The translations under genes and the position numbers were made by a program. From a bacterium (lineage in GTDB: Bacteria; UBA8248; JACPRG01; G963555815): a stretch of 64,000 nucleotides of DNA. The notes under the pieces were generated by a model. That model was not told the origin of the DNA, did not search any database, and saw nothing but the letters and a program-made list of their open reading frames with translations. How positions within the stretch are numbered: the first letter of the stretch is position 1; every line of letters begins with the position of its first letter. The DNA lies in assembly GCA_965261595.1 (NCBI GenBank), contig CBDHDG010000007.1, positions 192,001 to 256,000 on the forward strand, given 5' to 3'. Positions 24,114-59,324 of this stretch are shown one piece after another.

Positions 24114-24182
24114 TGCGGACCTTGCTCCCGAGAATACTCTCGCCTGGGGAGCGACCACGCTAAAATTGAGCCGCTATCCCAA

Positions 24183-24211
24183 AAACTAGCAACCCCGCCC
24201 AAACTTGTCAA
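24183..24211 (-). promoter_or_regulatory. Putative sigma70 promoter of the hrcA operon
   Basis: TTGACA-17 bp-TAGTTT. Confidence 0.6.
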
Positions 24212-24400
24212 TCGGAAACCCGCACCGCTTGACAGCCCTTGACCGACCTGAGAGACTTCCGGTGGCAGTTTTACACCTTACATTTCCGATGGTTCTGAAG
24301 GATTAATCCGTGATTATGCCTTTGACGCAGTAAGACACAAGATATAGGTGCGATTTTGAGACACTACATGTTGTGGTTATCCAACAGGAGGGGGTCACTT

Positions 24401-24616
24401 TTAGGGACCCGTGGAACCACATATCCTCCCATTGATGATGGCTGGTGGCCCGACGTAAGAGCCCCGAATTTCGAGTGGGATGCGTTTCTTCGGCGGTTTC
24501 TTATTCCTTATCCCCATCAAGTAGAAACCCGCATAGAAGAGAAGATCAATAACCCTAGAGGCTGCTTCGGAGATGAACCATCCAAAAACGTCAAATCCTT
24601 CATATCTAAATTCCAT
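24401..24616 (-). CDS. E1 cargo gene 3, small hypothetical protein
   Basis: 71 aa with a hydrophobic N-terminal half; GGAGAG RBS; preceded by the same leader module as cargo gene 2. Confidence 0.5.
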   Translation of the reverse strand: MEFRYEGFDVFGWFISEAASRVIDLLFYAGFYLMGIRNKKPPKKRIPLEIRGSYVGPPAIINGRICGSTGP

Positions 24617-24685
24617 TGCCTGGGCTCTCCAAGCTGCGGGTTAATGGAACGCCACGGCTGGGGCCGTATACCCCAGCCGTGGCAC

Positions 24686-24973
24686 TTATTCACACGCGAT
24701 GTCCTGTTGCGCCGATGCAATCCTCACTTCAAATTCACCGGCAAACCTGAATATCACCTTCTCAAGTTTGGGACTATTGAGATACCTATGTTGGGGCGGG
24801 TGTTTCCTGACAAAAAATACACGCCTCCGCTTTTTGTTGAATCTTCCTCCAAGTCTCTCTACGGCCAAGTAGTCTCTGTCCTGAAGAACCTGCACCAGCA
24901 GTTTAAGTTTTCTCGGGGAGACATAGGCGGGTCGGCTAAAAGCCTTTTCCTTAAGAAAGCATTTTGCTTCCAT
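24686..24973 (-). CDS. E1 cargo gene 2, hypothetical protein (paralog of cargo gene 1)
   Basis: AAGGAGG RBS; aligns along its length with the mature part of 25067-25417. Confidence 0.75.
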   Translation of the reverse strand: MEAKCFLKEKAFSRPAYVSPRKLKLLVQVLQDRDYLAVERLGGRFNKKRRRVFFVRKHPPQHRYLNSPKLEKVIFRFAGEFEVRIASAQQDIACE

Positions 24974-25066
24974 TGCCCCAGTCCTCCTTCAAGGTTGGGT
25001 GGTGATGGAACCGCAGCGCCAGGGGCGGGATCCCCTGGCGCTGCACTTGTAAATCTTATTTTCCAC

Positions 25067-25417
25067 CTATTTGCACGAGATGAACTCGCACAACGTCTCA
25101 AAAACCTTGAATTCCCCTTCAAAACGGAAAGTCGTAGAGCCAGGGATGCTCTTCAGGTATTGGAATCCTTTTGGATGCTCACTCACCATGAAAATACGCC
25201 ATTTCTCCTTTGCGTTTCGGTATCCAAGTTTATACAAAGCTACCAAATCGCGATCGTCCAACATGCGAAGTATGAGTTTTCTTCGTTCCAAATCCACATA
25301 AGCGGGGCTGTACACCGCACCTTTTCCGATAAAACAGGCCTTGTTGGATTCTCCAGCCATGACGGCGGAAGATGCGATGAGGGCAGTTGTAAGTATGCAA
25401 CCGCCGATAGTACGCAT
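25067..25417 (-). CDS. E1 cargo gene 1, putative exported hypothetical protein
   Basis: ATG 25417 gives a signal-peptide-like MRTIGGCILTTALIASSAVMA; paralogous to cargo gene 2. Confidence 0.75.
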   Translation of the reverse strand: MRTIGGCILTTALIASSAVMAGESNKACFIGKGAVYSPAYVDLERRKLILRMLDDRDLVALYKLGYRNAKEKWRIFMVSEHPKGFQYLKSIPGSTTFRFEGEFKVFETLCEFISCK

Positions 25418-25687
25418 GGGCAGACCCCCAGAAAATCGAGGTTGACACGGGCTTGGGGATTTGCTACAAGGAGGGTCTGTGAGGTCCTCTCTTGTAGCAA
25501 CGCCCCGGGGTTCCCTCGGGGCTTCCACCCTTTGAAGTTCCATATACCACATGTAGTGGGTCGGATTCAATTTTCGAGGGACCACCATATCTTGTGTCTT
25601 ACTGCGTCAAGGGCATAATCACGGATTAATCTGCAAGATTCAAGCCTATTTCACCCCATGCGCGCAAATATCCGACGGAACCGAAAA

Positions 25688-26431
25688 ATGACGCGGAATT
25701 TGTTGTTGGATATCTATGAGCGCCTGCTTCACCACTTCGGGCCGCGCGGATGGTGGCCGGGAGAGACTCCCTTTGAGGTCTGCATCGGGGCCGTTCTGGT
25801 CCAGAACACCTCGTGGACGAACGCCTCCCGGGCCATCGCCAACCTCAAGGCGCGAAAGCTACTCTCCCCGGAGGGATTGCGGCGAATCCCGAAATCCCGG
25901 CTGGCGCACCTCATTCGCCCCGCCAGGTTTTTTAACCTCAAGGCAGACCGCCTCAAGGCGTTCGTCCGATTCCTCTGGGTCGAACACCAAGGAAATTTGA
26001 ATCTGTTGTTCGACATCCCGGCGGAGAAACTCCGGAAAAACCTGCTGGAGCTGAAGGGGATCGGCCCCGAGACGGCCGATTCCATCCTGCTTTATGCGGC
26101 GGAATTTCCGGTCTTTGTCGTTGATGCCTACACCCACCGAATCTTTTCACGCCTCGGCCTCTACCAAGGCCCATCATCGGGCCGAAAGGGGTATGAAGCG
26201 CTTCAAGAGGGGTTTCACCGATTCCTCTCGCGCGACGCTCCTCTCTACAACGAGTACCACGCCCTTCTGGTCGAGCTTGGAAAAGAATATTGCCGTCCAA
26301 GACCCAAATGCGAATCCTGTCCGCTGTCCTCTATCTGCGCCTACCCGAGCGCCGCTCCGGAAGCATCGGTTCCAGCGGGTGTCAAAGGGAGCATCACAGC
26401 CAAATGCGAGGCAAAGGCAGAGAAGATTTGA
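25688..26431 (+). CDS. HhH-GPD endonuclease III-like DNA glycosylase
   Basis: WWPGETPFEV, QNTSW, GIGPETADSILLY, VVDAY and C-terminal C-X6-C-X2-C-X5-C FeS motif. Confidence 0.9.
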   Translation: MTRNLLLDIYERLLHHFGPRGWWPGETPFEVCIGAVLVQNTSWTNASRAIANLKARKLLSPEGLRRIPKSRLAHLIRPARFFNLKADRLKAFVRFLWVEHQGNLNLLFDIPAEKLRKNLLELKGIGPETADSILLYAAEFPVFVVDAYTHRIFSRLGLYQGPSSGRKGYEALQEGFHRFLSRDAPLYNEYHALLVELGKEYCRPRPKCESCPLSSICAYPSAAPEASVPAGVKGSITAKCEAKAEKI

Positions 26432-26448
26432 GATTTCCCGCGGGCGAG

Positions 26449-26955
26449 ATGCGCTTTGTGGCGGACATCACCGTAGGAAAGACCGCCAAGTGGCTCCGGA
26501 TCTTGGGATTCGACGCACTCTTCATGCGCAGTCTGGATATGGAATTTCTGGCCGCCCGCCTCGCGGAGGGACGCATCCTCGTCACGCGGGACAGCCGCCT
26601 CGCCAACAGGCCCGGCATGTCGAATACGATCCTCCTGGAGGCGAACGACCCCGCCGGACAGGTTGCGGATATCTTTGTCCGCCTGGGGCTGGCGAAGACG
26701 GTCATGGAAGCGGTTGGGCGGATGGAGTCCAAAGAGGAGGTGACCCGGTGGCCGAAACCCCTGTCCCGATGTATTCGATGCAACGCGCCCCTGAAGGAGG
26801 TTCCCCGGTCGGATGTCGTACTGGAAGTGCCTGATTTCACATGGGCGACCCAACCACGATTTCACCGGTGCCCCCTCTGCCGCCGCGTCTATTGGCCGGG
26901 AACACACCGCGAGAGGATCCTTTCAGCAATCGATGCCCTGAATCTGGGAAACTAA
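26449..26955 (+). CDS. Mut7-C RNase domain protein (PIN-like with Zn ribbon)
   Basis: MRFVAD..GK.AKWLRILGFD, RILVTRD, RC..CN and C..C.RVYW.GTH. Confidence 0.88.
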   Translation: MRFVADITVGKTAKWLRILGFDALFMRSLDMEFLAARLAEGRILVTRDSRLANRPGMSNTILLEANDPAGQVADIFVRLGLAKTVMEAVGRMESKEEVTRWPKPLSRCIRCNAPLKEVPRSDVVLEVPDFTWATQPRFHRCPLCRRVYWPGTHRERILSAIDALNLGN

Positions 26956-27329
26956 GCAGACTTTCCGCACTGGCCCCCGGTTTCCGAATGCGGATATGCG
27001 GGCCGTTTGACGCTTATCCTCCGCCGTTTTCCCAAAATCGGACTCGCCTCCCCCCTCCGGCCCCCCATTTACAACGAATGACAGGTGAAAATACGGGTTG
27101 GATTTGAACCCCGACCTCCCAGTCATTCGAACCTTGCCCGCTCTTGGGGCAAACCTGCTCTCAGTCTTGGAGCTTTTGGGACAAATATGAGACGATTTTC
27201 GTCGAAATTGTAAAGAACGTTATCTGAGCTGAATTGGCCTCCATTGACGAATTCTATTGATCCGCTAATAATCGGTTTAAATTCAAATGGTTGTGGAAAT
27301 CTGAAAAATAATAAATTTTTTGAACCTTT

Positions 27330-27345
27330 TGGTACAATATTTGCT
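27330..27345 (+). promoter_or_regulatory. Putative sigma54 (-24/-12) promoter
   Basis: TGGTACAATATTTGCT (GG-N10-GC) in an AT-rich region upstream of ORF 27404. Confidence 0.6.
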
Positions 27346-27403
27346 CTAATCCTATAACAACGCGAAATTCAAATCTCCCAAATTTCTTCTGGAGGGAAGA
27401 TTC

Positions 27404-27637
27404 ATGTTGGCTACGGAGCAGAAAACGGAGCAGAAAACGGAAATCACCGCTGTCACGCTGGCGGACGCGGGAAAGGCATTCAGAGAAGAGGCGGAAGAGA
27501 TCGCCGAATCGCCCCAGGAAGCTGAAATCCTGGCAACCGCCGCGCTCCTGAACTATCTGGCCACCGAAAGACCCAAACTGCTTGAGCGGCCGCTGGAAAA
27601 TATCCGAAAGGGCGCCATCGTTTCAAGCCTTTCTTAA
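27404..27637 (+). CDS. Small hypothetical protein
   Basis: 77 aa; GGAGGG RBS; 12-bp tandem repeat encoding TEQK-TEQK. Confidence 0.6.
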   Translation: MLATEQKTEQKTEITAVTLADAGKAFREEAEEIAESPQEAEILATAALLNYLATERPKLLERPLENIRKGAIVSSLS

Positions 27638-27748
27638 GATTTCTCAGATCGGAATCCAAGACCACCGGCGTCTCCACCCGGGCGAATTTCCCTCCCTCCC
27701 TCTCGCCCGCTGGAGACGCCGGAAATAATTATCCCTTTCCATTTCAAT

Positions 27749-28656
27749 CGTATTTATATACTTGACACAGACGACCACAACATGTAGGTCGCGCCCGCGT
27801 CTCGGCTGACCACAAGATGTAGGGGCATGCTTCCATCGATCCGTTTCCAGAAGATGCGCTCTATCAGATCGTTCGGTTTCATTGATCGATAAAATCCACG
27901 CGCTGAATATCGCCCTTTTCATTGAAGTGTAAAAACAACTTTTTGTTTATATGCAATGTGTTGTTGGTTTTTCCTTTTCTTCCGTACTTAAACTCAAATT
28001 CAAGACCGCCCTCAAAAACGCCGCTTCTCTTCTGCTCTATAGGATATGTAGTGATCGTCAAACCACCCCATCCCTCCTGCAGGGATGGTATAGCTATTCT
28101 TGGCATATGGCTCTTTTGTCGGGTACAACTTATCAAATGTTGAGACGACATTTACAACCTCAAATGTCACCGGGAAAAGAGCTTTGTTGTTAAACGTAGC
28201 ACCAATCCGCAGTGATTTTACTACACCAGCTTTGTCGATTATTCTGTCAGTTCTCACACTATGAAAGTTAAGCATATCCGCAACTCTATTACGATACCGC
28301 CATTCGCTGAATCGCAACAATCCCATAGAGGAAACTGAAAACAGAATGACCGCTCCAACATATAGGTTGAACAACTGGATATGTTGCGCAAAACCGATCA
28401 TGACGCCAGCCGCCGTGACCGCAATGGGCCATATCCAGCTCCGCAGTAATTCACCCGCCAAAAAGAGGGCGACTTTGCGAAGCCAATTGAGCATGATTCA
28501 GTCATTGTATGATCCCTCTTCGGTTGAGTCAAGCGCATAATTGCGAATCCAACTCCACCATGACTTGAGTTGAAGCATGCCCCTACATCTTGTGGTCAGC
28601 CGAGACGCGGGGACGATCTACATGTTGTGGTCGTCTGCGTCAAGTACATAATTCCG
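27749..28656. mobile_element. Element E2 copy a (908 bp): transposase-free cargo element
   Basis: 85-bp TIRs (27749-27833 and 28572-28656, 7 mismatches); 8-bp DR ATTTCAAT at 27741-27748 and 28657-28664; near-identical to 42873-43779. Confidence 0.9.
27879..28494 (-). pseudogene. E2a cargo gene, frameshifted copy of the 204-aa 2TM protein
   Basis: Extra A near 28044 (ATAGGATATG vs ATAGGTATG in copy b) splits the ORF. Confidence 0.8.
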
Positions 28657-28816
28657 ATTTCAATCCCAATCTCCCTCAACCCCCGGTATTTATCTCTGGA
28701 ATGCCCCGCACGCCTCTGCTACACTCTTTTTCTTGTTGGTCAGTGATCGACGGGCGCCGGGGTTTGCTCATGCCCCAATCTCCAGGCTCTGAAAACCCTC
28801 GGGGCGGCTTCAGCCA

Positions 28817-29494
28817 ATGGCCGGCATTTTGATCACCTTTGAGGGCATTGAAGGCTCGGGGAAAACAACCCAGGCGTCGCTGCTCGCCGATCGATTGCGG
28901 GAACAGGGACTTTCGGTTTTCCGCACCCGCGAGCCCGGGGGGACGCATTTGGGAGAGGGAATCCGGCGGCTCGTTCTCGATCCCGGACAGGAAGAGATTG
29001 ATCCCGTCGCCGAGTTGTTCCTCATGGAAGCCGCCCGCGCCCAACATGTGGCCGCGAAAATTCGCCCGGCGCTGGAAGCCGGAAAGGTGGTTCTGTGTGA
29101 CCGGTTCACCGATTCCACGCTGGTGTACCAGGGCCTCGCCCGAGGCCTGGAATGGAAGACGATCGAGGACGTGAACCTCCTGGCGGCGAAAGGCATTCGG
29201 CCACACACAACCATTGTCCTGGATCTGGACATCTCCGCCGGCCTGGCGCGGACGCGGACGCGGGCGGACGGTGCGGTTCAAGCCGATGGCTCTATTGATA
29301 CCGGCGAAACAAACCGATTCGATCTGGAAGACCGGAAATTTCACGAGATCATCCGGTCGGGGTTCCTGCGGTTGGCCAAAGAAGATCCCGGCCGGGTGAA
29401 AGTGGTCCGCGCCGCCGGTTCCGCGGAGGAAGTCCATGAAGAAGTCTGGAGGGCATTGGAGAAGACCCTCGAATCGGCGGCGCCATGCGGTTAG
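28817..29494 (+). CDS. tmk: Thymidylate kinase
   Basis: FEGIEGSGKTTQ, TREPGGT and CDRFTDST.VYQG. Confidence 0.97.
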   Translation: MAGILITFEGIEGSGKTTQASLLADRLREQGLSVFRTREPGGTHLGEGIRRLVLDPGQEEIDPVAELFLMEAARAQHVAAKIRPALEAGKVVLCDRFTDSTLVYQGLARGLEWKTIEDVNLLAAKGIRPHTTIVLDLDISAGLARTRTRADGAVQADGSIDTGETNRFDLEDRKFHEIIRSGFLRLAKEDPGRVKVVRAAGSAEEVHEEVWRALEKTLESAAPCG

Positions 29495-30531
29495 CCGAGA
29501 TCAAGGGGCAGGACCGGGCGGTGTCCGCCTTGCGGCGGGATTTCTCAACCGGCCGGATGGCGCCCTCTTACCTGTTTGTCGGACCTGAGGGCGTAGGCAA
29601 AACCACCACGGCCATCGCCTTCGCGGGTCTCCTCCTTTGCAAGGAGGGCGCTCGGGGCGGTGAATCCGAAGACGCCTGCGGCGTATGCGACGCATGCCGG
29701 AAGGTGCGGGCCGAGAGCCATCCCGACCTGATGGTCGTCCGAAGAGACGGCCGATTCATCAAGGTCGGAGAGTATGAGAAGGATCGGAAGCGGGGCGAGC
29801 CGCCTCAGATTCGGCAACTCATCGCCGCGGCGCAGCGCAAACCCTACGAGGGGCCGGTGAAGGTCCTCGTGGTGGATGAGGCCCACCGGATGAACGCCTC
29901 GGCGGCCAACGCGCTGCTGAAAACGCTGGAGGAGCCGCCGCCCGGCACGGTCATCATTCTGACCGCCGCAATGCTTGGGGCGCTGCCGCAAACGGTGGTT
30001 TCCCGATGCCGGGTGATCCGCTTCCGGAAGCTGGAGCGCTCCTGGCTGGCATCGGAGGTCGAGCGGCTTCGAGGCCGATCGGCCGAAGAGGCCCGTTTGG
30101 TGGCAAGTTTCGCCGATGGCCGCATGGACCACGCGCTTGAAGCCGACCCGGAAGAGGTCTTCGCGAGAAGAACCAAGGCCCTTGACCTCCTGGACGCGGC
30201 GCTGGAGGGCCGGACGGCCGCGGCGCTGAAAAACGTTTCCGGCGTAGGCCGGCCCGCCGAAGAGGCGGAAGCGCTCCTCGACGTGTTCATGTCCATCGTT
30301 CGCGACGTTCGCGCGGTCCGGGGAGGAGCGGAACCCGAATTTCTGGTGCACGAGGACTTGGCCAATAAGCTTGCCCGTTGCGGGTCAGCGTACACAAATA
30401 AAGCCCTGGAGGATTTGTTCGACCGCGCACGGTCGTTGCGCGCGGACATTCGCTTAAAAAACGCCAACCCGCAGCTTGGGTGGGAGTCCCTTCTGCTTAC
30501 TCCCAAGAAGCCAGCGGCGGTCGGAGGATAG
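29485..30531 (+). CDS. holB: DNA polymerase III delta-prime subunit
   Basis: YLFVGPEGVGK, CGVCDAC, HPD, AANALLKTLEEPP and SRC; follows tmk. Confidence 0.93.
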   Translation: MRLAEIKGQDRAVSALRRDFSTGRMAPSYLFVGPEGVGKTTTAIAFAGLLLCKEGARGGESEDACGVCDACRKVRAESHPDLMVVRRDGRFIKVGEYEKDRKRGEPPQIRQLIAAAQRKPYEGPVKVLVVDEAHRMNASAANALLKTLEEPPPGTVIILTAAMLGALPQTVVSRCRVIRFRKLERSWLASEVERLRGRSAEEARLVASFADGRMDHALEADPEEVFARRTKALDLLDAALEGRTAAALKNVSGVGRPAEEAEALLDVFMSIVRDVRAVRGGAEPEFLVHEDLANKLARCGSAYTNKALEDLFDRARSLRADIRLKNANPQLGWESLLLTPKKPAAVGG

Positions 30532-30535
30532 GTTC

Positions 30536-31354
30536 ATGAAGGTCCGGGTTGTGGGGCTCAATTTTCGAAGACAGAAGCGGGGCGCCCGCTATGATGCCGG
30601 GGACTTGTCCCTGCGTCTGGGAGATTACTGTGTTGTGAACACCGACCACGGCACGGAAGTCGCCCGCGTGGCCGTCAATCCCATGATCCTCCCGCGAGAG
30701 CGGATCAAAGGGAATCTTCCAAAGATCCTGAGACAGGCGACGGAGGAGGACATCGGACGATTCCGGGAGTTGGAAGCCGAGGAGGTGCGGGCGCGGCGAA
30801 CCGCCCTGAAGTGGATTCGCGGCATGAGGCTGCCGATGAAGATCTTCCAGGTGGCATACCACTTCGAAGAGGATTTCGCCACCTTCTATTTCACGGCCAA
30901 GGAGCGGGTGGATTTCCGCCAGTTGGTGCGGGAGCTCTCGGGTGAGCTGGGCATGCGGGTGGAGATGAGACAAATCGGGGCGCGGGACGAAGCCCGATTG
31001 ATGAACGGATGCGGCTCCTGCGGGCGGGATCTGTGCATCTCGAGTTGGCTGCCTGAATTCCGCCTGATCTCCATCCGGATGGCCAAGCTTCAAGACCTTG
31101 CCCTAAACCCTTCCAAGCTGTCGGGGATGTGCGGAAAACTGAAGTGCTGCCTTTCGTACGAGTTCAGGGAGTATGAAGGCGTTGCCAAAAAGATGCCCAA
31201 GATCGGAAAGCGCGTCAGCGGCTGCGCCGGATGCAGCGGGTGCGTGGTGAAACGAAACATCCTGGAGGAAACCTTCGTTATCCGCACCGAGGAAGGGGAT
31301 AGGGTGACCGCGACGCTCGATGACTACCAGGAGAGCAGGCGGCAGGCGAAATGA
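30536..31354 (+). CDS. ricT: RicT/YaaT (PSP1 domain) protein
   Basis: RVDFRQLV, RQIGARDEA, CGRDLC and KLSGMCGKLKCCL motifs. Confidence 0.9.
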   Translation: MKVRVVGLNFRRQKRGARYDAGDLSLRLGDYCVVNTDHGTEVARVAVNPMILPRERIKGNLPKILRQATEEDIGRFRELEAEEVRARRTALKWIRGMRLPMKIFQVAYHFEEDFATFYFTAKERVDFRQLVRELSGELGMRVEMRQIGARDEARLMNGCGSCGRDLCISSWLPEFRLISIRMAKLQDLALNPSKLSGMCGKLKCCLSYEFREYEGVAKKMPKIGKRVSGCAGCSGCVVKRNILEETFVIRTEEGDRVTATLDDYQESRRQAK

Positions 31355-31503
31355 TGCCGGCCGCGTGAAACCGTTCACCCCCCTGAGCGAAACGGCTGAA
31401 ACAGGGAACCGGCCGTCCAACTGAATGGACTCATCCCGGACGTTGTATCGCCGGCGATGTCGACGCTTCCTTCCCGAACCCGATCCATCGAACCCGAGAT
31501 CCC

Positions 31504-33501
31504 ATGAACGAGACGTTTTACGTAACCACCCCTATTTATTACGTGAACGACTATCCCCACATCGGTCACGCCTACACCACGATCGCGGCGGACGTCCTTG
31601 CCCGATTCCACCGCCTGGCCGGAACCCGGGTCTTCCTCCTCACCGGAACCGACGAGCACGGCCAGAAAGTGGAGCGAGCGGCCCGGGACCAGGGCTTGAC
31701 CCCGCAAGGGCTGGCCGACCGGGTGGTGGGCCGCTACCACCAGCTGTGGGACCGCCTCCGGATCGAGCCGGACGACTTCATCCGCACGACCGAAGCCCGG
31801 CACCGCAAAGGCGTAGAGGACCTGTTCCGCCGCGTGCAGGAGAAAGGCGATATTTACCTGGGCGAGTACGAGGGATGGTACTGCACGCCCGATGAATCGT
31901 TCTGGACGGAAACCCAGGTGGTGGATGGGAAATGCCCCGAATGCGGCAGACCGGTGGAACGCGTCCGGGAGGAAAGCTACTTCTTCCGGATGTCGAAATA
32001 CCAGGACCGGCTCCTGCGCCATCTGGAGGAGCATCCCGACTTCATTCTGCCGGAAAGCCGGCGCAATGAAGTCATCCGTTTCGTTGAAGGGGGTCTGCGG
32101 GACCTCAGCATCAGCCGGACGACTTTTCAGTGGGGCATCCCCGTTCCCGGGGGAGAGGGACACGTCCTCTACGTCTGGTTCGACGCGCTGACCAATTACA
32201 TCTCCGCGCTGGGATTCGGCGAGAAGGACGGCGGAGAGGACTACGAGACTTTCTGGCCCGCCGATGTTCATCTCATCGGGAAAGACATCCTGCGGTTTCA
32301 CGCCGTCTACTGGCCAACGTTCCTCATGTCGGCGGAGCTCCCCCTTCCCCGGCGCGTATTCGCCCATGGGTGGTGGACGGTGGAAGGACAAAAGATGTCC
32401 AAATCCCTCCGAAATGTCGTGGAGCCTAACCGTCTCCTCGACCACTACGGGGCGGACGCGGTGCGTTACTTTCTGTTGCGGGAAGTGCCTTTCGGTCAAG
32501 ACGGAAATTTTTCCCATGAGGCCTTGATCGAGCGAATCAACAGCGACCTGGCGAACGACTTGGGCAATCTCTTACACAGAACGATCGGCATGGTCGAACA
32601 GTTCTGCGGAGGGAAACTGCCGCGGGCCGCGGACGTCGGAGACCTCGAGCGCGGCCTTCAGCAGGCGGCCGGCGCCACCACCACGGTCCTCTGGGAAGAA
32701 TTGGAATCCTTGGAATTTCAGCGGGTCCTGAAAAGAGTTTGGGACTTTATCCACCAAGTCAATAAATACTTGGATACACGCGCACCATGGTCCATGTCCA
32801 AATCGGGAGACGAGGCGGGCGTTCGGACTACGCTCTACACGGCGGCGGAGGCGATTCGGGTCCTTTCCGTCTGGCTCTGGCCGTTCATGCCGGACGCCGC
32901 CCTGAAAATCCGCTCCCGTTTGGGGCTGGCCGCAGAAGACCCCCCGCGTTCTTTGGAAGAAGCCAGGACTTGGGGAGTCCTCGAGGCGGGCCAGGAGGTC
33001 CAACCCGGCCCGCCGCTCTTCCCCCGCATCGATGAGGAGGAAGCGGAGGAGATCAAACAGGCCGTGGGAAGAGAGGTCGAGAACGGGCAGGGGGCTCCCT
33101 TGTCGGAAGACGGAGGGTCTGCCGGGACGCCTCGACGGGAAGGGTCTTCAAGTCACGCGGACGAAGCGGCCGCGCGGATCGATTATGAGGCCTTCTCAAA
33201 GGTTTCATTGCGGGTCGCGCGTGTTGTTTCCGCCAAACCGGTCGAGAAATCAAGGAACCTGCTGAGCCTGAGGCTGGATTTGGGGGATGGGGGGGGGGAG
33301 CGAACCGTTGTCGCGGGCATCGCCGGCAGCTACTCCCCGGAAGAGTTGACGGGAAAGTCCGTGGTCATCGTCGCCAACCTCGAGCCGCGGACCCTCATGG
33401 GCGTCGAGTCGCAAGGGATGGTCCTGGCGGCCCAGGAGGGAGAGGGTCTGGCCTTGGTGACGCTGGACAAGCCGGTTCCCCCGGGAACTCCCATCCGTTG
33501 A
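31504..33501 (+). CDS. metG: Methionyl-tRNA synthetase
   Basis: TTPIYYVN..HIGH, GTDEHG, KMSKS and C-terminal tRNA-binding OB domain. Confidence 0.98.
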   Translation: MNETFYVTTPIYYVNDYPHIGHAYTTIAADVLARFHRLAGTRVFLLTGTDEHGQKVERAARDQGLTPQGLADRVVGRYHQLWDRLRIEPDDFIRTTEARHRKGVEDLFRRVQEKGDIYLGEYEGWYCTPDESFWTETQVVDGKCPECGRPVERVREESYFFRMSKYQDRLLRHLEEHPDFILPESRRNEVIRFVEGGLRDLSISRTTFQWGIPVPGGEGHVLYVWFDALTNYISALGFGEKDGGEDYETFWPADVHLIGKDILRFHAVYWPTFLMSAELPLPRRVFAHGWWTVEGQKMSKSLRNVVEPNRLLDHYGADAVRYFLLREVPFGQDGNFSHEALIERINSDLANDLGNLLHRTIGMVEQFCGGKLPRAADVGDLERGLQQAAGATTTVLWEELESLEFQRVLKRVWDFIHQVNKYLDTRAPWSMSKSGDEAGVRTTLYTAAEAIRVLSVWLWPFMPDAALKIRSRLGLAAEDPPRSLEEARTWGVLEAGQEVQPGPPLFPRIDEEEAEEIKQAVGREVENGQGAPLSEDGGSAGTPRREGSSSHADEAAARIDYEAFSKVSLRVARVVSAKPVEKSRNLLSLRLDLGDGGGERTVVAGIAGSYSPEELTGKSVVIVANLEPRTLMGVESQGMVLAAQEGEGLALVTLDKPVPPGTPIR

Positions 33502-33524
33502 GGAATCCATGAAAGGGTCGTCGG

Positions 33525-34973: not shown

Positions 34974-35023
34974 GGCCCTCCGCTGATTGGAGGGTCGGCC
35001 GGTCCGGAGAGAAGAGGCCCGCG

Positions 35024-35842: not shown

Positions 35843-35852
35843 TCGGAACGCC

Positions 35853-37436
35853 TCATTGGGCGACTTCCTCCGAACGGGTCTCGCGAATCACCGTCACCTT
35901 GATCTCGCCGGGATAGGTGAGCTCTTCCTCGATCCGACGTGCGATGTCTTTGGCCAGAAACACTGCCTCGGATTCGTTCACGTTGGTCGGTTGGACAATG
36001 ACCCGGATCTCCCGGCCCGCCTGGATGGCGTAAGACTTCTCCACGCCCTGAAAAGAGTCGCCGATTTTCTCAAGCTGCTGGAGCCGCTTGATATGGGATT
36101 CCAGCGTCTCCCGCCGGGCCCCCGGACGCGCGGCGGACAGCGAGTCGGCCGCGCAAACGGCCATCGACTCGATGCTGTTGGGTTCTTCTTCTTCGTGATG
36201 GGCCGCGATGGCGTTGAGGACGACTGGCGGTTCGCGGTATCGGCGAGCCACATCGATGCCGATCTGGATGTGGGAGCCTTCCATTTCGTGGTCGAGGGCC
36301 TTGCCGATGTCGTGAAGCAAGCCGGCCCGCTTGGCCAGCTTCACGTCACCCCCCAATTCCGCGGCCACGAGACCGCTCAGGTGAGCCACCTCCTTGGAGT
36401 GCATCAGTACGTTTTGGCTGTAACTCGTGCGATAGTTCAGTCTTCCGAGCAGACGGAGGATTTCGGGATGGATTCCGTCCACCCCGACCTCGATGGCCGC
36501 CTCCGCTCCGATCTCCCGGACGTTCTTCTCCATATCGCTCTTGACCTTGGCCACGACATCTTCGATGCGCCGCGGGTGGATGCGGCCGTCTGAGACCAGG
36601 CGCTCCAGCGCCCTGCGGGCGATCTCCCGCTTGATGGGATCAAATCCCGAGATGATCACCGCTTCCGGGGTGTCGTCGATGATGAGGTCCACGCCGGTCG
36701 CCATCTCCATCGCCCGGATGTTCCGCCCCTCGCGGCCGATAATCCGCCCCTTCATCTCATCGTTGGGCAGGCTAACGACGGACAGGGTGTTTTCCGCTAC
36801 GTGGTCCGCCGCGTATCGCTGAATCGCGATGGCGATGATTCGATTGGCTTCCCGCTCGGCCTGTTCCCGCGCTTCCTCCTCAATCTTGCGCACCAGGTTC
36901 GCGCTGTCGTGCCGGGCCTCCTCCACGACCTGATCCATGATCACCTTCTTGGCTTCCGCCGCCGTTAACCCCGATACGCGCTCGAGGGCCCGGGTTCGCT
37001 CTTGAAGAACGCGATCGGTTTCTTTTCTCAGCTCCTCGAGTTTGTCCTCCCGCTCGGTGAGAAGGAGACCCTTCTTTTCAAAATTCCGCTCTTTCGTCTC
37101 CGCCGCTTCCAGCTTCTTTTCCAGGTTCCCCTCCCGTTGGAGACTGCGGCGTTCCTGCGTTTGAAGCTCCTGTCTCCTCTCCTTGATTTCCTGATCCAAT
37201 TCCCGGCTGACGCGCAGGGTTTCTTCCTTGGCCTCTAATTCGGCTTGACGGCGAATGGTCTCCGCCTCCCGCTTGGCCTCGGCCTGAAGCTTATCAGCCT
37301 CTTCCTGGGCCTGCTGGATCTTGGACCGGACTGAAACCCGGCGCAGCAAAAATCCAACCACGCCCCCCAACACAATGAGCAACGCGCCCAGCGCCCAACC
37401 CTCCGGATTCATCCAGTTGGCCATGAGCTCAGACAC
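35853..37436 (-). CDS. rny: Ribonuclease Y
   Basis: N-terminal TM, coiled coil, KH ([12 protein letters not shown]) and HD (LLHDIGK) domains. Confidence 0.97.
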
Positions 37437-38172
37437 AGTGGATCACCTCCTCCGGTGATTCGTTCGTTGTTGTTGGAATCGAGTATCGATGAACATGAGC
37501 ATCGCAACGTATGACACCAACTTCCGTCACCACCCGGTGCATTGGAATATCCCACTCATCCCGGGAGATTCGGTCCTCCATCTGGCATGAAAAGGCCAGC
37601 CCAATCCGCTGGGCGTCGGCGCGGGCGGACGCCAGAAGCCCGTCGTAATACCCCTTGCCGAATCCCAGCCGGATCCCTTTGCCGTCGAAAGCCAGGCCCG
37701 GAACGACGAAGAAGTCAATGTTCTCGGTTTCTACAGGGCGGGGATGACGAGGCTCCAAGACCCCAAAAGCCGTTCGGACCCAACTCATCGGACCGGAATC
37801 CCGCCCGCCGGGCAGGTCTTTGATCTCCGAGAGGAACAGTTTCGCGCCCCGCCCCGCCGGAACCACGGGGACCGCCACTCGATATCCACGCGCCAAGGCC
37901 TTGCGAAGCAGGGCGCGCGTCCTGACCTCCAGACCGAAATCCACATAACAGGACAGCCACACGGGACTCCCGCTCCGAAGACGCTTTTGCAGATTCCGGA
38001 CCGCCTGGAGGCGCCAGAACCGTTGCACGATAGCTTGGCTATGGGTCTCGGCGGCCTCCGGGCGGAGCGCCTCCCGCCGGCTCAGGAACTTCCGGCGCAA
38101 CCGGGCCTTATCCGCAAGAATACGGGGCTTGGAAAGGTGATGAAGGGGACCGCTTTGAAGGTGAACCGCCAC
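37429..38172 (-). CDS. ygfA: 5-formyltetrahydrofolate cyclo-ligase
   Basis: [24 protein letters not shown] and WDIPM. Confidence 0.92.
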
Positions 38173-38540
38173 GCCAATGCTCCCATTGCGCGACGGAGTG
38201 AGGATCTCAGGGGGCCGGTTTCCGTTGGTTCCGAGCAGGCCGATGAACCCCGCGGATTCTTTTCATGCTTTCAAAGGCGCCGAGGGGAACTTCACCGTTT
38301 CCGCCCCTGGAAAGGGGGCGGGCAGATGGACAGCCGGGGCGTCCGGGCGGCTTGCTTCCTGCCGCACCCTCCCCGGATTATTTTCGAACCACGATGAATT
38401 TGACCAGCCGATAACCGACGTCATTTCCGCCTGGAGAATCCTTCCACTCCTTGTAGGTTGACCCATCCGCCTAAGGATGAAAGCACCGCCGTCCCTTCTC
38501 GTCGCGTCGCGCCTTCGCCTCAGGCTGGACAGTTGAATCT

Positions 38541-38725
38541 AAAGTCCCCTGCCGCAATGCCGTGTGGGTATACTTTTTGAACCTGGCAGCACCAGGTGGG
38601 CGCCTCGGAGGACATTTCAGGCTCACTCCCGGGGGAGGTGCACACCACGCCCTTCTCCCGGCTCCCTTTCTTTGTCTGTTGGCTCAAAAATTTTTACGTC
38701 CATCACGCACATGGCAGGGGAATTC
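38541..38725 (-). ncRNA. ssrS: 6S RNA
   Basis: About 185 nt closed by a TCCCCTGCC/GGCAGGGGA stem with internal TTGAGCC...AGGTTCAA pairing; classic zapA-ssrS-ygfA position. Confidence 0.85.
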
Positions 38726-38736
38726 GGCTCTCCTCT

Positions 38737-39030
38737 TTATCCCGCTTTTTCCACCATCTGAAGGAGCGCGAACGTGCGTTGGTCCAAATTCGATTCCTTT
38801 TCCCGCTCCACTTTCTCAGCATGGAAGAGATCACTCGCGATATTGAGCGCTGTCAGAACGGCGATTTTTTGCGTATCGACGGCCTTGGATTGCGCGGCCA
38901 CTTTGCGCATCTGATCTTCGACGTACCGAGCCACCGTCCGCATGTACTCCTGGTCCGCGCCCGCGCGGACGACATAGGATTTTCCGTAGATCTCCACGGA
39001 GACGGTGTTTCGATCCGCCACCAGCGCCAC
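38737..39030 (-). CDS. zapA: Cell division protein ZapA
   Basis: V.VEIYGKSY and AVLTALNIA motifs. Confidence 0.9.
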   Translation of the reverse strand: MALVADRNTVSVEIYGKSYVVRAGADQEYMRTVARYVEDQMRKVAAQSKAVDTQKIAVLTALNIASDLFHAEKVEREKESNLDQRTFALLQMVEKAG

Positions 39031-39039
39031 CTCCGATGC

Positions 39040-39279
39040 TTAACTCGCTTGATGTACCCGGGAAATGCCCGCCAACATGGACTCGACGCGGCTTCGCAGA
39101 TCGCTCCGTTCGCGCGTCAACAAGTCCTTCACTCGTTGAAATTCCCCGAGGTCTTTATCCCGGTTCTTCGCGGGAGCGTCGGCTTCGAGTTGATCCAAAC
39201 GCGACTTCAACTGCTTCCGTTCAGAGAGCAACGCCCGAAGCTGGTGCTCCAACTGTTCAAGATTTTCCAAACTCGACAT
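39040..39279 (-). CDS. Coiled-coil protein, ZapB-like
   Basis: 79-aa heptad pattern directly upstream of zapA. Confidence 0.65.
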   Translation of the reverse strand: MSSLENLEQLEHQLRALLSERKQLKSRLDQLEADAPAKNRDKDLGEFQRVKDLLTRERSDLRSRVESMLAGISRVHQAS

Positions 39280-39375
39280 GATTCAAGCCTTTTCAGAGTT
39301 TTCCGCCATCCCTCTCTTTATATTCTTATTCCACCAACGCGTCAAACCCGCCGGTCCTTTTCACCTCCCGAGAAC

Positions 39376-41808
39376 TCACCGCAGCTGAGCCTGAAACTCC
39401 CTTGAAAGTCGGGACACGATTCGCTCGTGCACCTCGTTGACCTCCTCCCCCGTCAGGGTTCTCTCGGCAGACCGGTAAACCAGGGCGAACGCAACGCTCT
39501 TCCGGCCTTTCGGGACCGGGTCTCCGACATGCACGTCAAACACCACGGCCTCTTGGGCCAAGGGGGCGCCTTCTTCCAGGATTGCACGCTGGATGGAATC
39601 CACCATCACTTCCGCCGGAATCACAACCGCCAAGTCACGGCCGGTCGGTGGAAAACTCGCCAATGAACGGAAGCGGGGCGTGTCCGCCATCGCACGCTGG
39701 AGAGGATTGGACGAAACCTCGAAAATCATCGCCGGTTGCGGGAGATCGAAGGCCCTTTGCGCGTCCGGATGAATCTCTCCCAGCTCGCCCCAGATTTCCT
39801 CCTCATTCGAGGACGCCTGACGGAGCCAGACCGTTGCCGAGCGGCTTGGATGATATGGATATCCGCATCCGGGCTTGAATCGGGCATGTTCTACGCCAAA
39901 AGCGGAGAGCAAGTGTTCCACTACTCCCTTGATATCGTAAAAGTCCCGCTTCCGGCCGCTTTCGGTCCAGACGCTCCGCTCAGAGGCCTGACTCAGGACA
40001 CCCGCGATGTGCAACGATTCGTCCGGAAGGGAATCCGACGGCGAAGATCCCGGACGAAACACATGCCCCACCTCGAACAAACGGATTTCCCCGACACTGT
40101 GGTTCCTGTTGGCCGCCGTGTTTCTCAAAAGAGCGGGCCACAAGCACGAGCGCAACATCGCTCCTTCCCGGCTCAGAGGATTCAATAACGCCAAAGACGG
40201 GCCGCCGTCATAGGAATCCGCCGTCCCGTTGTCCTTCAACGCGGGCACAAAACTCAGATTGATGGCCTCCAGCAAGCCGGCGCCGCACAGGACCGTGCGA
40301 ACCCGATTCAGAAAATCCCATTCGGAGGCGAGACCGAGGCGAGCATTCCCACCCAAAGGAAGGATTGTGGGGAACCGATCATAACCGTAGATACGCGCCA
40401 CTTCCTCGATGATGTCAATCTCCCGGGAGAGGTCCAGGCGGTGATCCGGGATCCGAATGGACATGTTTTCCTTGCTCTCCACCGCGGTCACCTCCATGCC
40501 CAGGGCGAGGAGAATGTCGGACACCTCGCGAATCGGTATATCCATCCCCAGAACCCTCTTAAGCTGGCCGGTTCGAAGGGTCACCATTTTTTTCTCCAGA
40601 AGCGCGCTCTGGGATACGTCGGCCATCCCCCGAGCCACCTCTCCCCCCGTCCCCCGGCGGATGAGCTCAGCCGCCCGGTCCAAGGCCTGCGGAACACCCA
40701 CCGGATTCACCCCTCGTTCAAATCGGAAGGACGCCTCGGTGGCGAGTCCCATCACCCGAGCGGTTCGTCGGACGCTCCGCGGTTGGAACAAAGCGCTCTC
40801 CAGAAGAACGGCGCTCGTGCCGGGACCCACCTCCGAGTCCAAGCCGCCGATCACCCCTCCGATGGCCACCGGACCCGCTCCATCACAGATCATGCAGGCC
40901 CCTTCGGGAGGGGTGCGCCGGGTCTTGTCGAGGGTGGTGAAGGTCGACTCATCTTCAGCGGTCTGCGCGCGAACCACGATTTCGCCCCCCCGGATCTTTT
41001 CCAGGTCGAAGGCGTGCAAAGGCTGGCCTCTTTCCAGCATGACGTAATTGGTCACATCGACCACATTGTTAATGGGCCGAATACCGGCTGTTTGAAGGCG
41101 CCACTGCATCCAGATGGGGGACGGCCCTATTTTTATTTTCTGCACGACCCGGGCGGTGTACCTCGGACACAAGTCGGGACAATCCACAGAGACGTTGACA
41201 AAACCTTTCACGGGACCGCCATGTTCGAGAACCCGCGGTTTCGGCGGGTGAAGAGGGGTTCTCTGATAACAGGCGACCTCGCGCGCGATTCCCAGAACGC
41301 TCAGGCAATCCCCGCGATTCGGCGTCACTTCCACTTCCAAGACGGTGTCCGAAAAACCCACCGCTTCGGAAAGCGGGGCGCCGACCTCGCAATCCGTATC
41401 CAGGACCCAGATGCCGTCGGTCGCGTCGGCAAACCCAAGCTCAGCGGCGGAGCAGATCATCCCCTCGGAGTCTTCCCCGCGAATCCGCACCGCTTCGATG
41501 GTCCTGCCGTCCGGGAGCCGGGCGCCCGGTGGAATCACAGGGACCCGTTGCCCAACGGCGACGTTGGGCGCCCCACAAACGATGCGTCTGTCGCCGCCGC
41601 CGGTTGAGACGCGGCACAAGTTCAGTTTGTCGGCGCCTGGATGCGGCTGAACATCCAGAATCTCCCCTACGAGGACCGGCTCGAACTCTCCGCCCACACG
41701 CTCCACGTTGACCGTTTCGATGCCGTTCATCGTGAGGACGCGAGCCAGCTCCTCCGGGGTCCCCTCATATTCAACGAACTCTTTTAACCAACTGCAAATC
41801 ACACGCAA
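39376..41808 (-). CDS. pheT: Phenylalanyl-tRNA synthetase beta subunit
   Basis: HPGADKL, IVCGAPN, TPNRGD, RFERG and EEVARIYGYD; TTG start at 41808. Confidence 0.98.
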   Translation of the reverse strand: MRVICSWLKEFVEYEGTPEELARVLTMNGIETVNVERVGGEFEPVLVGEILDVQPHPGADKLNLCRVSTGGGDRRIVCGAPNVAVGQRVPVIPPGARLPDGRTIEAVRIRGEDSEGMICSAAELGFADATDGIWVLDTDCEVGAPLSEAVGFSDTVLEVEVTPNRGDCLSVLGIAREVACYQRTPLHPPKPRVLEHGGPVKGFVNVSVDCPDLCPRYTARVVQKIKIGPSPIWMQWRLQTAGIRPINNVVDVTNYVMLERGQPLHAFDLEKIRGGEIVVRAQTAEDESTFTTLDKTRRTPPEGACMICDGAGPVAIGGVIGGLDSEVGPGTSAVLLESALFQPRSVRRTARVMGLATEASFRFERGVNPVGVPQALDRAAELIRRGTGGEVARGMADVSQSALLEKKMVTLRTGQLKRVLGMDIPIREVSDILLALGMEVTAVESKENMSIRIPDHRLDLSREIDIIEEVARIYGYDRFPTILPLGGNARLGLASEWDFLNRVRTVLCGAGLLEAINLSFVPALKDNGTADSYDGGPSLALLNPLSREGAMLRSCLWPALLRNTAANRNHSVGEIRLFEVGHVFRPGSSPSDSLPDESLHIAGVLSQASERSVWTESGRKRDFYDIKGVVEHLLSAFGVEHARFKPGCGYPYHPSRSATVWLRQASSNEEEIWGELGEIHPDAQRAFDLPQPAMIFEVSSNPLQRAMADTPRFRSLASFPPTGRDLAVVIPAEVMVDSIQRAILEEGAPLAQEAVVFDVHVGDPVPKGRKSVAFALVYRSAERTLTGEEVNEVHERIVSRLSREFQAQLR

Positions 41809-41845
41809 GGATTCAACCTTTTCCCGCCAACCCAACCGGATTCAT

Positions 41846-42856
41846 TCAGAACTGGGAAAGAAATCGGACATCGTTTTCAAAGAATAGGCGGATGTCATCG
41901 ATTCCGTATTTGAGCATGGCCACGCGCTCCACGCCGAGGCCGAACGCGAATCCCGTCACCTCCTCGGGGTCGTAGCCGACGAATCCATAAACCGCGGGGT
42001 CCACCATTCCGGCGCCGAGGATCTCCAGCCATCCAGTCCTTCTACAAACCCGGCAGCCCCGCCCTTGGCAGATGACGCACTGGATGTCCACCTCCGCGCT
42101 GGGTTCGGTAAAGGGGAAAAAGCTTGGGCGGAAGCGGACGCCCACATCGGGCCCGAACATCTCGTGCACAAAAATGGACAGCGTGCCGCGCAGATCCGCG
42201 AACGTCACGTCCCGGTCGACCAGGAGCCCTTCCACCTGGTGAAACATGGGGGCATGAGACACGTCCGCGTCACAGCGGTACACCTTGCCGGGAGCGACAA
42301 TCTGGACCGGAGGCTCCTGCTTTTCCATCACCCGGATCTGGACCGGCGAGGTGTGGGTCCGCATGAGCGTTTTTTCCGTGAGATAGAAGGTGTCGTGCAT
42401 GTCCCGGGCCGGATGATCCGGCGGGATGTTGAGGGCCTCGAAATTATAATAATCGAGCTCGACCTCGGGTCCCTCGGCAATCCCAAACCCCAGACCTTGG
42501 AAGATTCTCAGGACCTCTCCCGTCACCTGGGTGACCGGATGTATGCGCCCGGGGGGTTGGCCTCGGCCGGGAAGGGTGACGTCGAAGGAGGGCGCGGCTT
42601 TCCGTAACTCGGCGTGGCGTAGGGCTTCGAGCCGGCGCTCGAAAACGCCCTCGATTTCGGCCTCCACGGCGTGGACCGCCTTCCCGAATGTTGGGCGGTC
42701 CTCGGGGGGGAGCTTCCCCATACGCTTGAGTTGTTGGGTCAGGATGCCCTTGCGGCCCAGATATCGGGTCTTGACGGTTTGCAGATCTTCTTCCGAGTCG
42801 GCGGCTTCAGCCTCTTCGGCCACCAAGCGCGGGAGGTCTTCGAGGTCGTCACTCAT
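41846..42856 (-). CDS. pheS: Phenylalanyl-tRNA synthetase alpha subunit
   Basis: HPARDMHDTFY, RTHTSPVQ, FPFTEPSAE and GFAFGLG. Confidence 0.98.
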   Translation of the reverse strand: MSDDLEDLPRLVAEEAEAADSEEDLQTVKTRYLGRKGILTQQLKRMGKLPPEDRPTFGKAVHAVEAEIEGVFERRLEALRHAELRKAAPSFDVTLPGRGQPPGRIHPVTQVTGEVLRIFQGLGFGIAEGPEVELDYYNFEALNIPPDHPARDMHDTFYLTEKTLMRTHTSPVQIRVMEKQEPPVQIVAPGKVYRCDADVSHAPMFHQVEGLLVDRDVTFADLRGTLSIFVHEMFGPDVGVRFRPSFFPFTEPSAEVDIQCVICQGRGCRVCRRTGWLEILGAGMVDPAVYGFVGYDPEEVTGFAFGLGVERVAMLKYGIDDIRLFFENDVRFLSQF

Positions 42857-43002
42857 CGAGGCCCATTTCAATCGTATTTATATACTTGACACAGACGACC
42901 ACAACATGTAGGTCGCGCCCGCGTCTCGGCTGACCACAAGATGTAGGGGCATGCTTCCATCGATCCGTTTCCAGAAGATGCGCTCTATCAGATCGTTCGG
43001 TT

Positions 43003-43617
43003 TCATTGATCGATAAAATCCACGCGCTGAATATCGCCCTTTTCATTGAAGTGTAAAAACAACTTTTTGTTTATATGCAATGTGTTGTTGGTTTTTCCTT
43101 TTCTTCCGTACTTAAACTCAAATTCAAGACCGCCCTCAAAAACGCCGCTTCTCTTCTGCTCTATAGGTATGTAGTGATCGTCAAACCACCCCATCCCTCC
43201 TGCAGGGATGGTATAGCTATTCTTGGCATATGGCTCTTTTGTCGGGTACAACTTATCAAATGTTGAGACGACATTTACAACCTCAAATGTCACCGGGAAA
43301 AGAGCTTTGTTGTTAAACGTAGCACCAATCCGCAGTGATTTTACTACACCAGCTTTGTCGATTATTCTGTCAGTTCTCACACTATGAAAGTTAAGCATAT
43401 CCGCAACTCTATTACGATACCGCCATTCGCTGAATCGCAACAATCCCATAGAGGAAACTGAAAACAGAATGACCGCTCCAACATATAGGTTGAACAACTG
43501 GATATGTTGCGCAAAACCGATCATGACGCCAGCCGCCGTGACCGCAATGGGCCATATCCAGCTCCGCAGTAATTCACCCGCCAAAAAGAGGGCGACTTTA
43601 CGAAGCCAATTGAGCAT
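43003..43617 (-). CDS. E2b cargo: 204-aa hypothetical protein with two N-terminal TM helices and a beta-rich domain
   Basis: Intact ORF with AT-rich codons and its own promoter. Confidence 0.8.
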   Translation of the reverse strand: MLNWLRKVALFLAGELLRSWIWPIAVTAAGVMIGFAQHIQLFNLYVGAVILFSVSSMGLLRFSEWRYRNRVADMLNFHSVRTDRIIDKAGVVKSLRIGATFNNKALFPVTFEVVNVVSTFDKLYPTKEPYAKNSYTIPAGGMGWFDDHYIPIEQKRSGVFEGGLEFEFKYGRKGKTNNTLHINKKLFLHFNEKGDIQRVDFIDQ

Positions 43618-43626
43618 GATTCAGTC

Positions 43627-43655
43627 ATTGTATGATCCCTCTTCGGTTGAGTCAA
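43627..43655 (-). promoter_or_regulatory. sigma70 promoter of the E2 cargo gene (also at 28504-28532)
   Basis: TTGACT-17 bp-TACAAT ending 9 nt before the ATG, implying a near-leaderless mRNA. Confidence 0.7.
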
Positions 43656-43895
43656 GCGCATAATTGCGAATCCAACTCCACCATGACTTGAGTTGAAGCA
43701 TGCCCCTACATCTTGTGGTCAGCCGAGACGCGGGGACGATCTACATGTTGTGGTCGTCTGCGTCAAGTACATAATTCCGATTTCAATCCCGCAAAGCCCC
43801 TTCCGGGGCGGACAAGACCGCATCCGGCGACCGGGGCGCGACCCCCCCCGTCGGCCGGCGCGCCTTCCTGGCGGAAGGGCTTTGGCTGGTTTCAA

Positions 43896-59246: not shown

Positions 59247-59324
<78 letters not shown>

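Follow-up and report, generated by a model that had tools for sequence, protein, structure and literature searches.

In a 64,000-nucleotide stretch of a bacterial chromosome (GTDB lineage UBA8248; assembly GCA_965261595.1, contig CBDHDG010000007.1, positions 192,001 to 256,000; hereafter "the window", in whose numbering all positions below are given), we find three AT-rich islands, termed E1, E2a, and E2b, that carry small genes between terminal inverted repeats (TIRs) and share homologous ends around unrelated interiors. We consider it likely that the three are non-autonomous DDE-type elements of one family that are moved in trans, or in other words mobile insertion cassettes. Set against the literature on the IS1595 family, on mobile insertion cassettes, and on NrdR boxes, they are a new and rare family of a known kind. 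On this reading, gene-sized cargo would move within a core housekeeping region that has no resident transposase, and would do so even in the rplT–pheS spacer of an essential operon; mobility of this sort is easily overlooked by annotation pipelines that are keyed to transposase genes.

Anatomy and recent movement of the three islands

The islands are delimited by terminal inverted repeats and by the direct repeats that flank them. E1 occupies positions 24309-25623 (1315 bp), E2a 27749-28656 (908 bp), and E2b 42873-43779 (907 bp), and the 8-bp direct repeats are perfect at 3/3 copies. The duplicated target of E1 is GATTAATC, a perfect palindrome present at 24301-24308 on the left and at 25624-25631 on the right, and both E2 copies are flanked by ATTTCAAT (at 27741-27748 and 28657-28664 for E2a, and at 42865-42872 and 43780-43787 for E2b). 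A or T accounts for 6/8 bases of GATTAATC and 7/8 of ATTTCAAT, as compared with a background of 61% G+C. Between the two arms of the terminal inverted repeat, 37 of 39 bases are identical in E1 (right end, 25585-25623) and 78 of 85 in E2 (27749-27833 and 28572-28656 in E2a; 42873-42957 on the plus strand and its partner 43695-43779 in E2b); counted together with the duplications, the arms extend over 45 nt at 98% for E1 and 93 nt at 90% for E2. The element termini begin CGTGATT, CGGAATT, and CGTATTT.

Further inward, every end contains repeated subterminal sites, which in many elements are the binding sites of transposases. The left end of E1 (24309-24376, plus strand) consists of the terminal repeat with two 10-mers of the form CnAnATnTnG (24338-24347 and 24364-24373), spaced 26 bp apart, and the right end has its own 10-mers at 25585-25594 and 25547-25556. 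Each E2 arm, in E2a as in E2b, contains two direct 13-mers, CCACAA(C/G)ATGTAG, 35 bp apart. Upon alignment, the ends of E1 and E2 have in common a CG, a TTAT, a TTGAC(G/A)CAG, and then the 10-mer CnAnATnTnG, of which a second copy further inward brings the number to two per end. In a fixed register counted from the terminus, 27 of 39 positions match (binomial p ~5e-8), and the interiors gave no significant blastn or tblastx match to one another. A degenerate TIR-core pattern matches the six ends and nothing else in the 64 kb, with 0 matches expected in 100 shuffles.

The original prediction, a reading of the DNA made without database searches, had already described three AT-rich islands with inverted repeats and 8-bp direct repeats, and had aligned two end strings of E1 and E2 without gaps; all of these are present where it placed them, and the strings are correct. 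Absent from that account were the 13-bp site shared by the E2 copies, the palindromic nature of the 8-mers, a 420-codon frame in E1, and a likeness to NrdR boxes.

The composition of E1 and E2 is foreign to their surroundings: G+C content is 0.497 in E1 and 0.458 in E2 versus 0.607 in the rest of the window, and at the third codon positions (GC3) of the cargo it is approximately 0.5 versus 0.69-0.76 in four neighbor genes. The two E2 copies have only 2 differences in 907 positions (99.8% identity), one of them a synonymous G/A exchange at 28477/43600 and the other a frameshifting 1-bp indel, and because nothing more than one synonymous and one frameshifting base separates them, we take the last move to have been recent. 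Together with the occurrence of variants with other interiors elsewhere, this bears out the original description of a recently active element family.

The variants were recovered by protein searches. An exhaustive profile-free search of 1.84 billion protein representatives for relatives of the E1 frame (the plus-strand frame considered below) found two, P0010 and P0011. P0010 is the long form (P0018) minus 119 residues, which is exactly one 357-bp unit, removed between two copies of TTCCATTGCC, and is otherwise identical; the longest contig of P0010 is as long as that of P0018 (1,817,418). P0011 retains about 85 N-terminal (left) and 56 C-terminal (right) residues' worth of the E1 backbone around a different, short middle. 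A search with an ORF (open reading frame) that reads outward through the left end of E2 found a further protein, P0019, in which the E2-type end peptide continues to the last element codon and is then followed by a different flank (V-I-F); its interior is different as well. Back-read from the residues, the 8 bases after this end are GTnATHTT, which is not ATTTCAAT but is still AT-rich, and it follows from the differing flank that the flanking repeat comes from the target rather than from a fixed core. Judging by these translated variants, the same ends appear to occur with at least four interiors, and at least one further site appears to have a different AT-rich flank.

We scanned against Pfam all element ORFs and the longest ORF per window locus, a set comprising 77 of the 138 ORFs of at least 130 residues (the rest being mostly alternative-frame overlaps). 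No transposase, integrase, or recombinase domain was present in the element ORFs or in the longest ORF of any window locus, and for the element ORFs there was likewise no transposase or recombinase domain in NCBIfam, PADLOC, or PHROGs. The original statement that elements and window lack such a gene is upheld by the domain scans, except that a caveat attaches to the 420-codon frame on the plus strand of E1.

Each of the three insertions lies between genes. The window is a stretch of housekeeping genes with an average G+C content of 60%, including transketolase, groEL, hrcA-grpE-dnaJ, tmk-holB, metG, pheST, thrS-infC-rplT, lon, clpXP, and tig. E1 is located in the spacer between hrcA and an endonuclease-III-like gene, E2a upstream of tmk, and E2b in the rplT/pheS spacer, 16 bp upstream of the pheS ATG and with its cargo on the operon strand. 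The rplT–pheS spacer of this essential operon (42856-43896) is split by E2b, and from this arrangement it would appear that the expression of pheS must depend either on read-through or on the AT-rich left end of E2b. In that left end an outward-reading TATAAA-like hexamer can be seen by eye; a promoter scan did not flag the identical end of E2a. Adjoining E2a is a non-coding AT-rich stretch (26956-27400, 46% G+C) that contains a promoter-like site at 27244-27272 and gave neither a TIR-core match nor an Rfam match, and near it lies an orphan ORF of 77 residues (27404-27637).

Cargo genes of E1 and E2

The minus strand of E1 contains three ORFs. ORF1 (25067-25417) encodes 116 residues from an ATG preceded by GGGGG, in a frame that is open up to 25588, and its N terminus has a hydrophobic, signal-like segment. 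ORF2 (24686-24973, 95 residues) has an AGGAGG 9 nt upstream and no signal segment, and is a paralogue of the mature part of ORF1 (33/79 residues identical, E 1e-19). ORF3 (24401-24616, 71 residues) begins with a remnant of the C-terminal motif of ORF1 and ORF2, and its region is apparently retained in the near-empty backbone variant P0011. As read from the sequence, Shine-Dalgarno-like motifs lie about 9 nt upstream of all three. When the duplicated DNA is read on the plus strand, the identity is 22% (E 0.002); across the 77 aligned codon pairs, the minus strand shows 40 differences at first, 25 at second, and 54 at third codon positions, and 33 residues are identical in the minus reading versus 14 in the antisense reading. 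Because the paralogue identity and the codon-position pattern of differences constitute a coding signature, the coding strand of E1 is, by every indication from these comparisons, the minus strand.

Each of the two paralogues is followed on the minus strand by a perfect, G+C-rich 13-bp hairpin, located at 25013-25044 after ORF1 (-33.2 kcal/mol, z -6.0) and, as its sister, at 24651-24683 after ORF2 (-33.1 kcal/mol, z -6.4). When the two hairpin sequences are compared directly, 4 stem pairs prove to be exchanged, each on both sides, which points to a conserved gene-plus-hairpin module; both hairpins lack a U-tract. Upstream of ORF1 there is a third structured region (25455-25506; -32 kcal/mol, z -4.9), and this region is also conserved in the variant P0011. 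An Rfam search of positions 23800-29000 at E values up to 1 returned one chance-level match, which lies outside the elements. As for the proteins themselves, none of ORF1, ORF2, and ORF3 has a known relative in the family libraries; a homologue search with ORF1 passed 0 of 7 candidates, its matches in the Atlas were to unnamed clusters only (top score 0.86), and its single-sequence fold (predicted local distance difference test, pLDDT, 35) is unusable.

Opposite this cargo, the plus strand of E1 contains a frame of 420 codons (24356-25618) that starts 48 bp inside the left end and finishes 5 bp short of the right one. Without meeting a stop, it stays open over 430 codons, whereas in 2000 shuffles of E1 the longest stop-free run had a mean of 108 and a maximum of 258 codons; in the matching minus-strand register, the stop-generating triplets TTA, CTA, and TCA are absent except for the terminal one. 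It is this plus-strand frame that gene callers have picked for the database entries at E1, and it is also open in the variants P0010 and P0011. The frame has no match in Pfam, NCBIfam, PHROG, or PDB, and among the 1.84 billion representatives it found only its own variants.

The cargo of E2 is a single minus-strand gene that is intact in E2b (43003-43617), where it encodes 204 residues belonging to no known family, and broken in E2a by an extra A at 28044, leaving the pieces 28012-28494 and 27879-28151. Just upstream of the cargo start, on the same strand, is a promoter-like TTGACT-17-TACAAT (28504-28532 in E2a; 43627-43655 in E2b), identified only by a 10/12 match to consensus. A structural model of the protein, at a moderate mean pLDDT of 64.6, predicts two N-terminal membrane helices followed by an eight-strand beta-sandwich; the PDB structures that resemble it are generic beta-sandwiches with query template-modeling (TM) scores of at most 0.32, and with only such generic matches we assign the protein no function. 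More broadly, searches for a function of the E1 and E2 ORFs gave nothing in Pfam, NCBIfam, PADLOC, or PHROGs and nothing meaningful in a PDB sequence search, and the E2 protein matched only unnamed clusters in the Atlas (top score 0.93). Among 84 candidates from 5.8 billion clusters, 9 were relatives of the E2 cargo, all of them unnamed, and frameshifted copies occur among these relatives and cluster members (P0006, P0017/P0015). One of the frameshifted copies, P0006, from an ENA contig, has a 31-residue N-terminal extension, the first dozen residues of which may resemble the start of an IS3-type transposase OrfA, a very short likeness.

Class, mechanism, and competing explanations

Under the mechanism that we favor, the elements would be cut-or-copy DNA transposons with passenger genes between homologous TIRs. 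The enzyme, a DDE-type transposase whose gene would lie in the same genome but outside the window, would bind the subterminal 13-mers and the conserved terminal 22 bases, and insertion would take place into short AT-rich targets of two-fold symmetry, where repair of the staggered cut would produce the 8-bp duplication. The cargo would have been acquired horizontally and has its own expression signals; in E1 it encodes two paralogous small proteins, one with a signal-like N terminus, and in E2 a two-helix membrane protein with a beta-sandwich domain. We infer the DDE chemistry, the mobilization in trans, and the family of the enzyme; for the last of these an IS1595-like transposase is our best guess, albeit a tentative one that we regard as more probably wrong than right.

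The class itself has precedents. A mobile insertion cassette, as defined in the relevant passages of PMC4337579, consists of passenger genes between insertion sequence (IS)-type repeats without a transposase. In E1 and E2, TIRs of 39 or more bp (E1) and 85 bp (E2) enclose ORFs unrelated to transposition, with the qualification that their being "IS-related" is inferred from anatomy; there is no transposase gene inside, and a target-site duplication is found at 3/3 copies. The novelty claimed in the original prediction was to this extent overstated, as such cassettes had already been defined (PMC4337579). Like the cassettes of Bacillus cereus and the TnXax1-derived cassettes of Xanthomonas described there, E1 and E2 combine inverted repeats, the absence of their own transposase, target duplications, and several cargo types on the same ends, and some of the Xanthomonas copies share one direct repeat, TACTC(G), similar to the recurrence at E2a and E2b (PMC4337579). 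They differ from known mobile insertion cassettes in the length of their TIRs, which is up to 85 bp with a pair of internal repeats in each arm; in having no known parent element; in their cargo, which amounts to between one and three small genes that belong to no known family; and in their location in a core chromosomal housekeeping region, not on a plasmid or in a plasticity zone. What we have at present is a new family with three orphan genes; should a partner enzyme be found, the long structured ends and the reused 13-bp site would offer a compact system in which target choice could be studied.

With respect to the IS1595 family, whose description in PMC8101967 rests on a transposase with a Zn-ribbon and a DDE_Tnp_IS1595 domain, the resemblance is partial. 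Members of this family make AT-rich 8-bp repeats (PMC8101967; ISApl4, PMC12561309), and passenger-carrying members exist in the form of transporter IS such as ISNha5 (PMC11891212, PMC8101967). E1 and E2 likewise have passenger genes and an AT-rich 8-bp duplication, the length of which is ambiguous (8, 6, 4, or 2); unlike IS1595 members, which carry their own transposase, they have no Zn-ribbon or DDE_Tnp_IS1595 gene. The first bases of the ends fit the 7-base end consensus that the original prediction had quoted for IS1595 subgroups, but that consensus was not found in print, where text matches were confined to short strings in unrelated sequences and primers. The one IS1595-family end that was read in print, the 14-bp inverted repeat GGGGCTGTACTAGA of ISApl4 given in PMC12561309, is unlike those of E1 and E2, and the first 100 of the 295 kb of Nitrobacter hamburgensis plasmid 1, in which we sought a genuine ISNha5 end, contained no IS1595-family gene. 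There is also a likeness to miniature inverted-repeat transposable elements (MITEs), which are non-autonomous, have TIRs and target duplications, and are moved in trans, as we suppose for E1 and E2; the variant P0011, in particular, comes near to an empty backbone. What sets E1 and E2 apart from MITEs is their genes, which look expressed and come with ribosome-binding sites of their own and with a promoter-like site.

Several observations weigh against our classification of the islands as DDE-type mobile insertion cassettes. A cognate transposase is lacking in the window, and an exact scan for the TIR core in 185,579 species genomes found 2 single matches, neither with an inverted partner: one upstream of nrdR in a Poribacteria metagenome-assembled genome (MAG), the other a lone match in an Arthrobacter contig. 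The scan of the species genomes thus found no related element, and no autonomous relative is known. A blastn search of a plasmid collection at E values up to 10 returned 5 and 1 short matches for the elements, all interior (best E 0.07) and none at the ends, and a phage collection gave no match to the elements. The outer three positions of both 8-mers are palindromic, such that the duplication may equally well have a length of 8, 6, 4, or 2 bp, the TIRs being longer to match, and the 8-bp length, which is the main link to IS1595, is therefore not uniquely determined. E2a and E2b share not only the 8-mer but the whole 13-bp site ccATTTCAATccc (27739-27751/28655-28667 and 42863-42875/43778-43790), beyond which the DNA is unrelated; such identity is not what a DDE enzyme usually produces, and it would be in keeping with site-specific recombination. 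The argument from a variable flank comes from a single protein, P0019, back-read to DNA, and not from DNA itself. Finally, the 420-codon plus frame of E1 is probably not a gene, but our classification does not account for its openness.

The shared site ccATTTCAATccc suggests either a strong target preference or site-specific recombination. If the latter, a circular form with abutted ends would have inverted binding sites on either side of an 8-bp overlap and would pair this overlap with an identical chromosomal 8-mer, each element type being tied to its own core, and this would account for E2a and E2b having the same 8-mer within the same 13-bp site, for E1 having its own, different one, and for the ends beside the 8-mers being inverted repeats. 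We nevertheless hold this explanation to be unlikely. A site-specific integrative element would have the same core at every copy and a linked tyrosine or serine recombinase; in P0019 an E2-type end is followed by a different flank (thin evidence, being one protein-derived flank), no recombinase is found in the window, and apart from one or two C the chromosomal flanks bear no resemblance to a half-site of the element ends. In addition, it is typical of transposase ends to have long TIRs in which subterminal sites are repeated. The window contains no unoccupied copy of the 13-bp E2 site: when up to 3 mismatches are allowed, there are 24 matches where 26.8 would be expected, and the closest of these are the occupied sites themselves. 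We regard as decidedly unlikely a further possibility, namely that the islands are not derived from IS1595 at all and represent a new, lineage-restricted transposon family with a nearly site-specific 13-bp target and an unrecognized enzyme, possibly the 420-codon plus frame of E1.

That frame raises the question of whether E1 is itself autonomous, with the frame as an unrecognized transposase that also moves E2 and with P0010 and P0011 as internal-deletion derivatives. Its layout, spanning the element nearly end to end as in a classical IS, does resemble that of an IS transposase gene, its 430-codon stop-free run was never reached in the shuffles, and it is kept in two variants. An autonomous insertion sequence would be filled by a recognizable transposase ORF, however, and the plus frame has no family, phage, or structure match and no relative beyond its own variants, while in the duplicated part it is the minus frame that is under protein selection. 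The variants remove or replace the middle of the plus frame, so that there is no conserved core, and because variants with a broken frame are hard to detect by protein search, its being "kept in frame" is partly a matter of ascertainment. On balance we consider an autonomous E1 highly improbable. It is barely plausible, in turn, that the resemblance to transposons is superficial and that the islands are regulatory repeats or old remnants without mobility: the failure to find an enzyme and the absence of the TIR core from species-representative genomes would fit, but near-identical copies with perfect duplications at two unrelated loci, a foreign composition, and variants in other contigs and sites would not.

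Three narrower readings were tried and rejected. A TA-duplicating mechanism of the IS630 type fails on the center of the E2 8-mer, which is TC; a Xer/dif-type reading would need an arm-spacer-arm arrangement lined up with the direct repeat, and none is convincing; and a segmental duplication that took in E2 and its flanks is contradicted by the flanks themselves, which are no longer alike from 2-3 bp past the 8-mer.

NrdR-like boxes and other features of the window

The subterminal repeats of the six ends (24338-24373, 25547-25594, 27778-27822, 28583-28627, 42902-42946, and 43706-43750), which lie beside a TTGAC hexamer, resemble the boxes bound by the host repressor NrdR. If they acted as operators for NrdR, cargo expression or end usage would be tied to the deoxyribonucleoside triphosphate (dNTP) state of the cell, an addition that is compatible with mobile insertion cassettes moved in trans and that we consider very unlikely. 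All of the subterminal sites (12/12) carry the conserved box positions C4, A6, A8, T9, T11, and G13 as listed in PMC13584703, and like the NrdR operators described there, they are paired, partially palindromic boxes beside a TTGAC -35-like hexamer. The window contains 22 matches to this pattern, of which 12 are the subterminal sites, 2 more are inside the E2 copies, and 8 are elsewhere, as compared with a shuffle mean of 11.3. In addition, one of the only two TIR-core matches among the species genomes lies directly upstream of an nrdR gene. Six fixed positions make a weak pattern, however, and what counts as 12 sites goes back to two homologous ones that have been copied. A palindromic repeat is, moreover, to be expected for any dimeric end-binding protein. 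To bind, NrdR requires a pair of boxes separated by 15-16 or 26-27 bp (PMC13584703), whereas the 16-bp boxes here have linkers of 19 bp in E2 (27775-27790, 27810-27825) and 10 bp in E1 (24335-24350, 24361-24376), and in view of these linkers we treat the resemblance as a curiosity. The boxes here are thus unlike NrdR operators in being out of phase and in their position, which is within transposon ends and not in front of genes for ribonucleotide reductase. The match in the Poribacteria genome (OZ242351.1, locus L002, 4985-5035) directly precedes the nrdR gene, whose product has the domains Zn_ribbon_NrdR and ATP-cone, and a second box-like sequence can be seen by eye approximately 31 bp upstream of the matched one.

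The remainder of the window contains other features of note. Two tandem 52-bp units, 92% identical, are found at 16778-16881 between a methyltransferase gene and a metallo-beta-lactamase-fold gene, within a stretch of lower G+C content at 15.5-17 kb. A cluster of five tRNA genes is located at 53162-53648, and an AbiEii/AbiEi type IV toxin-antitoxin pair adjoins tRNA-Pro (57455-58994 and 59248-59324).

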